DNA of 29,587 nucleotides from a virus (lineage: Duplodnaviria; Caudoviricetes). Shown one piece after another: positions 1,574 through 10,650 of the stretch (within the stretch, counting starts at the first letter, position 1; every line of letters starts with the position of its first letter). The stretch lies in the IMG/VR virus record IMGVR_UViG_3300029448_000275, positions 1 through 29,587 of that record; one strand, written 5' to 3'. Under the pieces are notes generated by a model that did no database searches, was not told the origin of the DNA, and saw only the letters and a program-made list of their open reading frames with translations. The translations under genes were made by a program, and so were the position numbers.

Positions 1574-1783
1574 ATGCACGTAAAAGTTAAAAATAACAAT
1601 ATTGAAATTGCATTGCGCATCTTTAAGCGTAAGTTAAAAGAGAGCGAAAAGTTAATACAACTTCGTAAACGTGAGCATTATGAAAAACCCTGTCAAAAAA
1701 GAAACAAAGCTAAATCAGCGGCAGTATTAAGAGAAAAGCGTAGACAAGGAGGTACAAATGGACTCAATAAGCCCCGAAGATAA
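1574..1783 (+). CDS. rpsU: Phage-encoded 30S ribosomal protein bS21
   Basis: VKVKNNNIEIALRIFKRKLKESEKLIQLRKREHYEKPCQKR matches the S21 signature ALRxFKR...RxRxxYEKP. Confidence 0.92.
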   Translation: MHVKVKNNNIEIALRIFKRKLKESEKLIQLRKREHYEKPCQKRNKAKSAAVLREKRRQGGTNGLNKPRR

Positions 1784-2003
1784 ACTTCAAATAGATGAAG
1801 CAAATTCAAAAACAGCTCAGTTTATTTTTGAATTGTTAAAAGATAAAAATCCTATGGTTGTTGCAGGTGTATTAACTGCTATGGCTTTGGGACTCTATAA
1901 AACAATACTCGATGAGGAAGAGTATGAAATAATGATCGACTCAATTAGTGAGAGTCGTCACGTAATTAATAACTTTGGAGCAGATATAAGGACATTGCAC
2001 TAA
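1758..2003 (+). CDS. Hypothetical acidic protein
   Basis: AGGAGG RBS; translationally coupled in the operon. Confidence 0.75.
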   Translation: MDSISPEDKLQIDEANSKTAQFIFELLKDKNPMVVAGVLTAMALGLYKTILDEEEYEIMIDSISESRHVINNFGADIRTLH

Positions 2004-2383
2004 TGACAAATAATCAACTAGTCGAAGAGTTTATGAGAACTTTTGGACAAGAAGTAAAACCAGTAATTGAATGGCCGGGACTAGATGTTGCAGCACTAAG
2101 GGTAGAACTAATTGATGAAGAACTTAAAGAATTACGTGAGGCAACTTTAAAACAAGATCTGGTTGGTATTGCTGACGCGCTTACAGACTTACTTTATGTA
2201 GTTTATGGAGCTGGCCATGCATACGGCATGGATCTTGATGTGTCTTTTGCAGAGGTACACCGCAGTAACATGAGTAAGTTAGATGAAAACGGAAAACCAA
2301 TCTATCGTGAAGATGGAAAGGTACTCAAGGGTAAAAACTACAGTCCACCGGACTTAGTAAAAACTTTATTTGGAATGCCATGA
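2003..2383 (+). CDS. MazG-like/PRA-PH nucleoside triphosphate pyrophosphohydrolase
   Basis: LIDEELKEL...DALTDLLYVVYG...EVHRSNMSK...REDGKVLKG motifs. Confidence 0.88.
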   Translation: MTNNQLVEEFMRTFGQEVKPVIEWPGLDVAALRVELIDEELKELREATLKQDLVGIADALTDLLYVVYGAGHAYGMDLDVSFAEVHRSNMSKLDENGKPIYREDGKVLKGKNYSPPDLVKTLFGMP

Positions 2384-2700
2384 TACATGTAGCCGCATCT
2401 GCACGAAGCAAACTTACAAAACTACATCTAACACCACCATGTATAGGTATTCGCATTCGTGTAGAAGATAGTGGCTGTAGTGGACTTGCATATGCTATGG
2501 AATATTGCTACAAGAAAGAAGAAACTGATACAGTAGTTCGTGCGGGCTCAAAACGATTGTATATAGATGCAAAAAGTATGCTCTATTTACATGGCTCGGA
2601 CTTACACTATCGTAAAAAAGAATTTGAAGAGGGATATGAGTTTACAAATCCCAATGTAACAAGTGAATGTGGCTGCGGAGAAAGTTTCTATGTCACATAA
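2380..2700 (+). CDS. iscA: Fe-S cluster assembly A-type carrier (IscA/HesB)
   Basis: GCSGLAY and FTNPNVTSECGCGESF motifs with all three conserved Cys. Confidence 0.93.
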   Translation: MIHVAASARSKLTKLHLTPPCIGIRIRVEDSGCSGLAYAMEYCYKKEETDTVVRAGSKRLYIDAKSMLYLHGSDLHYRKKEFEEGYEFTNPNVTSECGCGESFYVT

Positions 2701-2708
2701 GGACTAAT

Positions 2709-3095
2709 ATGGCTTACAGCGAAAAGGTAATTGATCACTATGAGAATCCCCGTAACGTTGGAAAGATGGATGCGACTAAAAAGAATGTCGGCACAGGTAT
2801 GGTGGGAGCTCCTGCTTGTGGAGACGTTATGCGACTTCAAATTGAAGTTGACAAAGGAATTATATCCGATGCGAAGTTTAAAACTTATGGTTGTGGTTCT
2901 GCTATTGCTAGCTCTTCTCTACTCACCGAGTGGGTCAGAGGCAAGTCTATTGATGAAGCTGCTTCAATAAGAAATACACATATTGCTCAAGAACTTGCAC
3001 TTCCACCTGTAAAAATACACTGTAGTGTACTCGCAGAAGATGCAATCAAGGCGGCAATAAACAACTACAAGGAGAAGCAGAATGGAACTGTTTAG
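2709..3095 (+). CDS. iscU: Fe-S cluster scaffold IscU
   Basis: MAYSEKVIDHYENPRNVG, GAPACGDVM, KTYGCGSAIAS and LPPVKIHCS motifs; start refined to the ATG at 2709 with an AAGGA RBS. Confidence 0.96.
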   Translation: MAYSEKVIDHYENPRNVGKMDATKKNVGTGMVGAPACGDVMRLQIEVDKGIISDAKFKTYGCGSAIASSSLLTEWVRGKSIDEAASIRNTHIAQELALPPVKIHCSVLAEDAIKAAINNYKEKQNGTV

Positions 3096-4665: not shown

Positions 4666-4989
4666 TTACTCTGCTCCTGACCCCGCAGCGGTTGCTCTTT
4701 CCAGTATAAATAATACTTGCTTCGGAGCTTTCTCCAATCCCTCCAACTGACTATCCTCTAGCCCTAATGCATATGCAATTGTTGTAACTAACTCAATTTT
4801 TGTGACTGGAGCGACCCCGCTCTTGGTTACATACACGTTTCGCTTGTACACTCCCTCTCGGGATAGTTTGCCAATTATAGACTTAGGACTCTTTCCTAGC
4901 TCTTCGGCTAATTCGTTTACAACTTCCATAGTAGGCTCACTTTCATACACGCCCACTATGTAGTCTGTTTGATCTTTTGTATAATTCAT
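4666..4989 (-). CDS. T5 A2-like DNA-binding protein (paralog 1)
   Basis: NYTKDQT...ELAEELGKSPKSIIGKLSREGVY...VTKIELV...LEGLEKA resembles T5 A2 (HTH-like N-terminal part plus C-terminal helices). Confidence 0.72.
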   Translation of the reverse strand: MNYTKDQTDYIVGVYESEPTMEVVNELAEELGKSPKSIIGKLSREGVYKRNVYVTKSGVAPVTKIELVTTIAYALGLEDSQLEGLEKAPKQVLFILERATAAGSGAE

Positions 4990-5309
4990 GCTGGCTCATC
5001 TCCTTCAAAATCTTCTAATACGAAGTGCAGTGTTTTAGTGTCGCCATCATATCGAATATTTACTTGTTTGCAATATGTAAGAAGTCTAGCTTCTATACTC
5101 TCCTTTTCTACCATTCTAGCGTACTCACGCAATACTGCGCTGTAAGCTACCTCGACTTCATGTATAGAGTCACCAATATCAGAAATCTTGCCCATGAGTA
5201 TATCCATCTCATCATAGGCATCGTCCATTTTGTTGATCATTTCATCGAGTTTGTTCTTGAGACGTTCTCTCTTCTTTTCCTGATTTGGAAACTGTATTAT
5301 CTCCGCCAT
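4986..5309 (-). CDS. Acidic coiled-coil hypothetical protein
   Basis: Phage-typical MAEIIQFP N-terminus; ATGA overlap. Confidence 0.75.
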   Translation of the reverse strand: MAEIIQFPNQEKKRERLKNKLDEMINKMDDAYDEMDILMGKISDIGDSIHEVEVAYSAVLREYARMVEKESIEARLLTYCKQVNIRYDGDTKTLHFVLEDFEGDEPA

Positions 5310-5470
5310 TGTTTGTACTCATCTTTTCCGATTATATCGGGTTTAATGCACTCATACGAATATGAATAGCTTGGATAGTTTCGTTGTACATAAACTTCGT
5401 TACAAGAGCCTCGATATATTACTTTACCAAAATTGTTTTTTACTTCGTAGATTCCTGACTTTGGTTTCAT
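5297..5470 (-). CDS. Small protein with a GIY-YIG-like N-terminal motif (57 aa)
   Basis: MKPKSGIYEVKNNFGKVIYRGSCNEVYVQRNYPSYSYSYECIKPDIIGKDEYKQWRR; ATGA coupling; AGGA RBS. Confidence 0.6.
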   Translation of the reverse strand: MKPKSGIYEVKNNFGKVIYRGSCNEVYVQRNYPSYSYSYECIKPDIIGKDEYKQWRR

Positions 5471-5601
5471 TTTTGTTTCCTTTCAATTACTTTTGCTTGT
5501 TCAGCAATTATTTTTGCCTGTGCTTCAAGCTTCTTTTGTTGAAACAGAAGTCTTTGCTCTTGGTGCTCTGCTTCAGTTTGTAACTTTGTAATTTTATCCA
5601 T
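5467..5601 (-). CDS. Small coiled-coil protein (44 aa)
   Basis: MDKITKLQTEAEHQEQRLLFQQKKLEAQAKIIAEQAKVIERKQK; GGGGGA RBS. Confidence 0.65.
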   Translation of the reverse strand: MDKITKLQTEAEHQEQRLLFQQKKLEAQAKIIAEQAKVIERKQK

Positions 5602-5614
5602 TAGTTTCCCCCAA

Positions 5615-6012
5615 AAAAATTCCCCATATTAGAGGCTTCATAGCGGATATGCTCGGCATAATATGGGGTTAAAAATGCATTTTTATTTTTAGTGGCACTC
5701 GGTAGCTCCCACCTCGTGTCCTTTAATAGGTATGACACGATCACCCTGTAGTGGCTGTTTTCTTTACTATCTGCTGTTCTGATGTGTAGCTGATAGTTAG
5801 ATTCATTTGAGTGCGTTCTGGCTATGCCACGTTGCTTCACCACTACTTTCATTTGGGTCAACAGTCCTCACATCAGTCTCATTCTGCAATCCTATGTACT
5901 TGTGGTGAAGTTGTGATAAAGAGTGCTTCACCAGCTTTTGCTCACATACCTACTACCGATGTAGTAGACGTACAGCCCGCGACCTTTCCATAAGATGCTT
6001 TATTCCCAAATT
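5615..6012 (-). ncRNA. Candidate large (~400 nt) multi-stem, pseudoknotted ncRNA
   Basis: Own promoter, at least five perfect 6-10 bp local stems, two long-range pairings, and a 3' hairpin followed by a U tract. Confidence 0.55.
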
Positions 6013-6022
6013 TTGAAAAACT

Positions 6023-6051
6023 ATTATCTCAAATTTTTAACCTTCTGTCAA
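6023..6051 (-). promoter_or_regulatory. sigma70 promoter for the ncRNA candidate and downstream genes
   Basis: TTGACA-17-GATAAT. Confidence 0.72.
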
Positions 6052-6386
6052 CAATTATTTTTCAAATGGTCAGAAATAATTCTTCGAAACTTTCTACTTG
6101 GTTGAAAGCGTGTAGTGCTTTGCGATATAACGCATTCATCAGGTACTAAATAGTCTGTTATCTGTTCCAATACCATAGGCGGCTCATCTTTTCGCACCAC
6201 AAGAGAGATATCATAGCGTACATACTCTTGGTTTTCGTACACTTCCTCGTGATACTTTCTACCATTTTTGAGTTCGTTTGGTAACTTTTCGATAAACAGT
6301 TCATACTGCTCACGCTGAGATGTTTCATCGCGTAGATCAAAGCCTAAGCACATATCGTCTGTATCGCATACTTCATCCATTTTCAT
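6048..6386 (-). CDS. Hypothetical protein
   Basis: GGGAG RBS; overlaps the upstream gene. Confidence 0.7.
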   Translation of the reverse strand: MKMDEVCDTDDMCLGFDLRDETSQREQYELFIEKLPNELKNGRKYHEEVYENQEYVRYDISLVVRKDEPPMVLEQITDYLVPDECVISQSTTRFQPSRKFRRIISDHLKNNC

Positions 6387-7219: not shown

Positions 7220-7564
7220 CTAAGAAGCAGAGGGTAGGACAGTCTGAAGCGCATTTACCAAGCGCTGAAGGTCGGCTTTTGAAGCCTTCACCAGCGAATC
7301 AACGCTAGTCCCTGTCAGAGACGCAATCTGAGAAACAAGCTCAGCTTTGCGAACAATGGTAGCACCAGACTTGGTGGTGCGCTCTTGTGCCTGATAGACA
7401 CCTTCACGAACGAGCTTAGCAATAATGCTACGCTTATTCTTACCAAGCTCTGCAGACAGAGCAGAAACAGTCTCCGAGCTAGGAGCTGCAGTGTATTCGC
7501 CTACCATGCGGGCGACCATCGCATCAGTGTAATTCGGTACACGAGCCGTAGTAGTTGCTGTCAT
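7220..7564 (-). CDS. T5 A2-like DNA-binding protein (paralog 2)
   Basis: NYTDAMV...LSAELGKNKRSIIAKLVREGVY...IVRKAELVSQIA...KASKADL; start refined to MTATT with an AGGAGG RBS. Confidence 0.78.
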   Translation of the reverse strand: MTATTTARVPNYTDAMVARMVGEYTAAPSSETVSALSAELGKNKRSIIAKLVREGVYQAQERTTKSGATIVRKAELVSQIASLTGTSVDSLVKASKADLQRLVNALQTVLPSAS

Positions 7565-7629
7565 AAATGCCTCCTGTGGCAATCATATAAATTAAGAATT
7601 TGTTAAGCGTTTTTCGATTTTATAAATGT

Positions 7630-7901: not shown

Positions 7902-7915
7902 GGGCGCGGCTTAAA

Positions 7916-8195
7916 AAATTCGCCGAACTACTACTCGGCTGGGCGCACATTAAATTCGCCGAACTACTACTCGACTAACTGAAAAAATTTCACAAGATTA
8001 CTACTGGACAAGCAAATAAAAAATTCGCCGAACTACTACTCGAGTGGGCGCAGACTACGTTATTTTATTTTTGCTTTTGCACCAAAAAACACTTGACAAA
8101 GTTTGTTCGATCGCGCACTATGGTGGGCGCAAAAATATTTCATAGAACTACTACTCGAGTGGGCGCAGAAAATTTCGCCGAACTACTACTCGACT
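7916..8195 (+). repeat. Direct-repeat array, core GAACTACTACTCG x5 (plus 1 degenerate), ~35-bp period
   Basis: Cores at 7925, 7961, 8030, 8145 and 8180; degenerate copy at 7996; extended unit AAATTCGCCGAACTACTACTCG; interspersed TGGGCGC. Confidence 0.9.
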
Positions 8196-8301
8196 GCAGA
8201 GACTACTGTTTTGTTCGATTGCACACTAGGTTGCACACAGAGCAAATGGGGGTAAGCGTTCACTTTCGCACTCGGGCGCGGCGGCGCCGAAATCCCTTTG
8301 A

Positions 8302-10572: not shown

Positions 10573-10650
10573 GCAAGCAAGAATCGTGCCAACTTTTCGC
10601 AAGCAAGAATCGTGCCAACTTTTCGCAAGCAAGAAGCATGCCAACTCTTA
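10573..10650 (-). repeat. 3 x 26-bp tandem repeat, each unit a sigma54 (-24/-12) consensus
   Basis: Minus strand TTGGCACGATTCTTGCT at 10576-10592 and 10602-10618, and TTGGCATGCTTCTTGCT at 10628-10644. Confidence 0.85.

Follow-up and report, generated by a model that had tools for sequence, protein, structure and literature searches.

What fills a gap of about 400 bases in a minus-strand gene block of an apparently T5-like phage, where a sequence-only reading had placed a structured non-coding RNA? The window, meaning the whole stretch of 29,587 nucleotides analysed here, is a virus record (IMGVR_UViG_3300029448_000275; 31% complete) whose large terminase is ∼50% identical to large terminases of Vibrio, Serratia and Escherichia phages, which we take to be T5-like. 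The block that holds the ∼400-base candidate adjoins the small terminase gene (terS), and includes three mutually related DNA-binding genes of one family together with many consensus promoters. Two of the three match PHROG 1725 (E about 1e-4 to 1e-5), and the family is labelled A2-like after its presumed T5 counterpart, A2; no A1 gene was identified in the window. The position beside terS, the three A2-like genes and the many promoters suggest that the RNA is likely pre-early. The gap is not free of ORFs, since an 86-codon frame overlaps it. We consider the element very likely a real structured RNA. Its non-coding gene, in what we read as a marine T5-like phage, is led by a promoter, and the product is predicted to form two domains over ∼335-400 nt (Table 1).

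Table 1. Features of the RNA element, its slot in the window and loci that carry module A
Feature	Position	Strand	Remark
Transcription start, predicted	near 6016-6014	-	
5' domain, ∼165 nt	5851..6016	-	predicted closure by P1, 6011-6005/5857-5851
Candidate 5'-domain pseudoknot	5856..5984	-	5984-5977/5864-5856 crossing 5998-5989/5896-5886
Variable-length hairpin	5949..5968	-	
Hairpin	5903..5933	-	alternative: 3' strand with 5843-5835, 9 bp
Overlapping 86-codon frame, judged spurious	5601..5861	-	
3' domain, multiloop	5695..5846	-	predicted closure by 5814-5809/5700-5695
Dispensable, variable hairpin	5762..5802	-	A' of the sequence-only reading (5779-5786) in loop
7-bp hairpin	5714..5740	-	
5-bp hairpin	5701..5713	-	closing pair 5713-5701 covaries, back-inferred from codons
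Terminator-like stem	5613..5668	-	10 bp, 27-nt loop, then AA and seven U
Upstream slot anchor, second A2-like gene	7220..7582	-	
Downstream slot anchor, conserved 107-aa gene	4986-5309	-	
Downstream slot anchor, A2-like DNA-binding gene	4666-4989	-	
Module A loci			L250, L252, L254, L256, L260, L266, L269, L270, L273, L274, L283, L288, L302, L310, L318

The element has its own promoter, as first read: a sigma70-type sequence with an extended -10 (6051-6023, minus strand; 11/12 consensus, with TG). The five local stems of the sequence-only reading are likewise all present (5950-5956/5961-5967, 5903-5910/5926-5933, 5766-5771/5792-5797, 5714-5720/5734-5740 and 5622-5631/5659-5668). Perfect local stems of at least 7 bp number 5 against a mean of 0.54, a count reached in 0/300 dinucleotide shuffles. 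Folding is better than that of shuffles (z = -2.2 for 5615-6012), and for 5680-6016 the minus strand scores z -2.83 and the plus strand z -0.86, with the caveat that 4/25 background windows (168 nt, elsewhere in the genome) also lie below -2. The hairpin at 5903-5933 is preferred over the alternative 9-bp pairing (0.84 vs 0.14). The terminator-like stem was not called by the terminator scan.

Two metagenome copies, L207 and L227, are 95% and 90% identical to the element and are the only homologs among the 117 loci of a scan that covered 28/64 parts. Both retain the promoter, and L227 keeps promoter and RNA although its upstream DNA differs; conservation of the RNA is therefore independent of the upstream gene. 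In L227 the variable-length hairpin differs by one compensatory change and one wobble change; it is shorter in L207 and longer in RNA contigs of sequencing runs X1 and X4. The terminator-like stem carries a compensatory A-U to G-C change in L227, and in L207 the closing helix P1 could extend to 13 bp. The hairpin at 5762-5802 occurs in a 21-nt shorter form in L227 and a 17-gap form in run X1. A repeated 11-mer, ACYCAAAUGAA, is present as described in the sequence-only reading, but we count it as not conserved because its first copy (5848-5858) differs in L207, as it does in the X1 and X3 RNA contigs. A viral scan with RNA motifs (36/64 parts) returned 120 loci, zero of them homologous; of two further such scans, one gave 2 chance matches and the other none. 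Scanning with the upstream gene (6048-6386) found no loci, and with the downstream gene one locus, which ends before the RNA.

The overlapping frame might itself be the gene, with the structure incidental, a reading that we hold to be highly improbable. Its middle stays open in each of the three DNA sequences, gene callers pick it up widely, and the common hairpin deletion is in frame; the open middle partly reflects the fact that protein collections record open frames only. Several findings count against it: the start is lost in L207, the stop position shifts, relatives span 63-127 aa with frameshifted forms among them, the protein search found no relative below 76% identity, and the product has no PHROG match. 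That search gave 8 clusters, with 38 of ∼71 sequences read, and 38 translations are usable, the window's included, one chimeric protein having been left out of 39. Among 37 translations, 26 have R/P at one pair of residues and the other 11 have K/L, and mixed forms never occur. These coupled changes, which also speak against a coding role, map onto one RNA base pair, as expected if bases 5713/5701 switch between G-C and A-U; the switch may be a single event. Other traced residue changes fall in loops or yield wobble pairs, and one wobble-type change in the 7-bp hairpin is back-inferred from P0122, P0151 and P0157. Covariation thus appears at one pair by way of the translations, while in the alignment of three DNA sequences it is not significant (2/82 pairs, matched in 68/500 shuffles, for a structure picked on the same three sequences).

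The two long-range pairings of the sequence-only reading, A-A' (5869-5876 with 5779-5786) and B-B' (5840-5846 with 5748-5754), exist as complementary segments, but the A-B-A'-B' pseudoknot built from them fails, since the A' loop is lacking in L227 (one of two DNA homologs), where a short hairpin replaces its hairpin, and in 22/38 translations. A crossing pair of long-range stems of such size arises in 96/300 shuffles and so does not exceed chance, and the A-A' pairing probability is about zero in the ensemble of nested folds, where pseudoknots cannot be scored. B-B' persists across the three DNA sequences with a single G-U change; within the 3' domain its core (5845-5840/5754-5749) crosses a different helix, the one that closes the multiloop. 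This crossing is a candidate pseudoknot, whose two helices show one wobble change each (in L227, and in P0148 by back-inference) and zero double changes. The 5' domain holds a further, unproven candidate, in which the pairing 5984-5977/5864-5856 is invariant in the 3 sequences and the crossed helix has one wobble change and no double change; the energy model prefers a different fold.

Part of the stretch 5400-6200 is present in 22 RNA runs from 11 studies, half of its words being found in none. Contigs of 4 of 24 runs (X1, X3, X4 and X5, chosen for holding the stretch) were placed on the window, and in 3/4 of these marine runs deep contigs cover 5614-6018 and little else. In X1, depth is 212-452 on 5680-6018, falls about five-fold at 5680 (452 to 81) and is 81 on 5614-5709, against only 2-6 on other pieces (4782-4954, 5100-5256, 7308-7514). 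Contigs of X3 cover 5680-5995 and those of X4 5665-5982, and coverage in X5 is low and patchy. Two RNA runs added as same-sample contain next to none of the stretch's words, which is not proof of absence. Coverage stops at 5680 in two studies, a weak hint at a mature end before the terminator. The contigs carry no strand and may include DNA carry-over; the RNA is apparently abundant, and its mature ends are putative.

This coverage also bears on whether the element acts as a DNA-level signal, an injection stop or an origin, and not as RNA. T5 terminal repeats are described as holding repeat-rich untranslated injection-stop DNA (10.1101/866236). The strand-asymmetric folding, the G-U-type changes and the RNA-library coverage argue against such a role, for which the repeat array at 7912-8207 is a better candidate, and we find it barely credible here.

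No Rfam family matches the RNA credibly at E up to 10, ribozymes included, which leaves the earlier suggestion of a ribozyme unsupported. With known self-cleaving ribozymes and group I/II introns among the models, only sroB (E 4.3) and snR33 (E 0.71) appear, far below cut-offs. The sequence-only reading could not match the RNA to tmRNA, RNase P RNA or tRNA, and neither ARAGORN (0 tRNA or tmRNA genes in the window) nor the Rfam models give a match. The best hit of permuted tmRNA (RF04321) has E 2.5 and lies elsewhere in the genome, with both ARAGORN and the model detecting this RNA in relatives; RNase P types A and T (RF00010, RF02357) give 0 matches at E up to 10, their controls being positive. 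A catalytic RNA, self-cleaving or with RNase P-like processing, would suit the size, the candidate pseudoknots and the tRNA neighbours in relatives, and to our eye the helix order of the 5' domain loosely resembles the RNase P core; given these null results, we consider it very unlikely. Nor is there any Rfam match for type III antitoxin or CRISPR-repeat similarity, or a tandem unit among the repeats. In INPHARED, blastn with the window RNA finds no similar phage record and tblastn with an A2-like protein nothing usable, and the literature covered, which leaves out most subscription papers, gave no description of this RNA or its slot. The label of an unclassified large phage ncRNA is supported: the RNA is conserved independently of the gene upstream, RNA libraries cover it, its substitutions preserve structure, and Rfam has no match. 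Words that on visual inspection looked like hammerhead, group I, RNase P or tmRNA sequence were set aside, being either not conserved or without a match.

Related loci were collected through A2-like genes (80 of 397 matches, plus 18, plus 2) and share a fixed order of A2-like gene, slot, conserved small gene and A2-like gene. In 56/62 relatives with the whole slot (46 distinct), it holds an ORF-poor unit that runs from promoter to terminator (here called a cassette) over 210-1295 nt, several lengths including a tmRNA and a short ORF. The window RNA is likewise a promoter-led non-coding unit, lying downstream of the second A2-like gene and upstream of the conserved small gene; the cassette script missed it because AA precedes the U run in its terminator. 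In most cassettes inspected the next gene has its own promoter past the terminator, so the cassettes are stand-alone units.

This arrangement weighs against a cis-acting leader or attenuator setting read-through into the four downstream genes, since in most relatives the unit is terminated and transcription begins anew for the same gene downstream. The window itself offers some grounds for such a leader: the terminator-like stem runs straight into the ribosome-binding site and start codon (ATG) of ORF 5467-5601, no strong promoter was found after it, depth drops near 5680, and an alternative 9-bp pairing is available. One conserved module of the relatives (module A) also lies ∼25 nt ahead of a start site, directly before a gene, in L372, L377 and L388. 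A switch overlapping the terminator was not found, and a leader seems improbable.

Rfam matches above cut-off, in 9, 7 and 15 slot loci, are to tRNA and tmRNA only. ARAGORN reports permuted tmRNA in 9/60 loci scanned, 8 of these in the slot; three cassettes contain tRNAs. Unlike permuted tmRNA, the window RNA has no tRNA-like domain or tag by ARAGORN or the RF04321 model, and some relatives hold tmRNA and cassette side by side. The slot content might point to a translation-side helper or inhibitor that binds ribosomes or translation factors, aiding the phage or damping host translation. Cassettes contain 101 Shine-Dalgarno-like 5-mers, mostly without a following ATG, against 74.8 +/- 7.6 after shuffling (42 cassettes, related to one another and some shortened by the script), and a hairpin with a G-rich loop closes many of them. 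The enrichment is mild, presence per cassette is at chance (35/42 vs 33.3), and the window has no tRNA-like or tmRNA-like domain; we regard a translation-side role as unlikely. The permuted two-piece tmRNA is seen at L252 5844-6227 and in L267, L269, L270, L274, L281, L292, L302, L306 and L319; these genes carry the tag ANDDVYSLAA or a close form and mostly start at the stop of an A2-like gene. At L281 6927-7001 a tRNA-like gene inside the cassette has an 8-base anticodon loop, for which ARAGORN gives a four-letter anticodon.

Cassettes are modular, with modules gained, lost and moved. Module A (70-110 nt; e.g. L252 6824-6898) is absent from Rfam, and 10/15 of its pairs covary, a 3-bp pseudoknot included (16 sequences). 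Its core motif occurs in 48 viral loci, the full module in 39, and in 31 a slot anchor gene lies no more than 2.5 kb away. In many cassettes it comes first, in L260 and L273 last, and close kin lack it. In our judgement some of its loops resemble the T-loop motifs of FMN and cobalamin riboswitches. In L353, L357 and L385 a 16-nt unit in its variable hairpin is tandemly expanded three to five times. A second module, a 45-nt H-type pseudoknot, has 8/12 covarying pairs (10 sequences); shuffles reach this count in 52/500 and its covariation score in 0/500. It occurs with a conserved A-rich linker at L244 3351-3396 and in 11 other loci.

Structure is demonstrated for these two scored modules only, since the nested folding energy of cassettes is no better than that of shuffles or coding controls (median z -0.37 vs -0.97, 46 each). 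RNAalifold on the T1 alignment gives 3 pairs, and the joint alignment of T1 and T2 is too poor to score, so the T1 and T2 3' modules are putative homologs by visual comparison. Across the cassettes we found no universal core: content differs by clade and largely follows the protein tree, in which the window is a long branch.

The window RNA shows no shared module with 92 + 31 related loci by blastn, nhmmer and three models, a comparison of limited power in that the window models were built from 3 near-identical sequences and the positive control of model R3 reached only E 0.42. Nine module profiles run against the window gave no match, and the one likeness, between the 5' closing helix and a short leader hairpin that lacks the insert and follows the promoter in L256 and L376, is not significant (E 8.6 and 2.1). 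The link between window and cassettes is positional: the slot is common and no detectable sequence is, so that lessons from the relatives transfer by position only.

Among known phage RNAs, GOLLD (RF02032) and ROOL (RF03087) are alike in being large, structured, phage-encoded and often near tRNA genes, and are described as self-assembling (10.1101/2024.12.08.627333). A self-assembling large RNA or RNP scaffold of that kind would agree with a phage-encoded, apparently abundant RNA whose relatives neighbour tRNA genes, and one clade has units of ∼800-1300 nt. The window RNA is shorter, however, and neither model matches: GOLLD gives 0 matches among 9 scored candidates and ROOL none in window or candidates, the ROOL control being silent too. 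GOLLD and ROOL each have one conserved fold, whereas the slot carries different modules per clade with no universal core, and Rfam yields no scaffold RNA in the relatives; a scaffold is a rather weak contender. The units of the clade L324-L338, non-coding from promoter to terminator, follow the second A2-like gene (e.g. L331 6607-7640, L325 2813-3760), have no Rfam match and are candidates for a new giant RNA. T4 RNA C and RNA D are likewise phage small RNAs without assigned function (PMC9697503) and are classed as late, in contrast to the likely pre-early window RNA. Candidate viral structured RNAs have also been mined by covariation from IMG/VR intergenic regions (Fremin et al. 2023, PMC10690425); those described there span 29-151 nt, and the relatives' short modules could be among them.

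What, then, might the RNA do? In line with the anti-defence decoy proposed in the sequence-only reading, we tentatively favour, as possible though short of probable, an early decoy RNA that would act in trans, being bound or cut by host defence or RNA-handling proteins instead of their real targets. This reading derives from the stand-alone units, the turnover of their content and neighbours known as T5 counter-defence tools: tRNA and permuted tmRNA share the slot, and T5 tRNAs are described as countering host defence (PMC11555353). Slot synteny, the frequency of cassettes, the compact covarying modules and the excess of X1 depth on the RNA body over the three other pieces are consistent with it. 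The strong promoter would have the RNA made right after phage entry, the pseudoknots and the paired 5' end would stabilize it, and the modules would act one by one. Against the decoy, the analysis turned up no target, no partner that binds the RNA and no host RNA that it mimics, and the window shares no detectable module with its relatives. The folding energy of cassettes is no better than that of shuffles or coding controls, the three-sequence covariation is not significant, and the RNA runs were preselected, with strandless contigs and patchy X5 coverage. The lack of a strong promoter past the window terminator fits a leader, and content that largely follows the protein tree shows less reshuffling than a locus in a fast arms race might.

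Type III antitoxin mimics and RNA anti-CRISPRs are phage RNAs used against host immunity. Unlike them, the window RNA has neither tandem repeats nor a CRISPR-repeat or antitoxin match in Rfam; the relatives' 45-nt pseudoknot module has, as we understand it, the size and topology of type III antitoxins. A broader proposal, which we rate as doubtful, is an RNA anti-defence island, in which the first-injected DNA of marine T5-like phages would combine one strong promoter with mix-and-match folded modules, the window being a lineage-specific two-module member. Each module might then bind, as decoy or aptamer, a host immune protein, a ribosome part or a signal molecule.

Large phage RNAs without assigned function, such as GOLLD, ROOL and T4 RNA C and D, have long marked a gap in knowledge. 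The window adds an uncatalogued phage RNA that is probably real and points to a clade-wide modular RNA locus: in a widespread marine phage group, one slot is reserved for non-coding RNA with about a dozen uncatalogued folds, two of them with clear pseudoknot covariation. At 45-170 nt the modules are easily made and could be screened one at a time for ligands, protein partners and rescue from defence. Should the decoy reading be right, RNA counter-defence would be an arrayed, evolving strategy and not a few isolated cases.

Several further features of the genome are recorded here. Window positions 1574-3095 hold auxiliary genes for ribosomal protein S21, a MazG-like protein, IscU and a probable A-type Fe-S carrier. 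In marine viral genomes, IscU genes are reported to group with Gammaproteobacteria, one with SAR86 (PMC5332604). Contig L322, which belongs to the same phage group, sits in the bin of an archaeal Poseidoniales genome, likely through a binning artefact. At 7912-8207, five to six direct repeats of 26-41 nt with a CTACTACT core lie between facing promoters; similar text recurs in relatives, and the array is a candidate injection-stop region. At 10573-10650, three tandem 26-nt repeats with nearby palindromes precede the terminase gene and possibly mark a terminal-repeat boundary.
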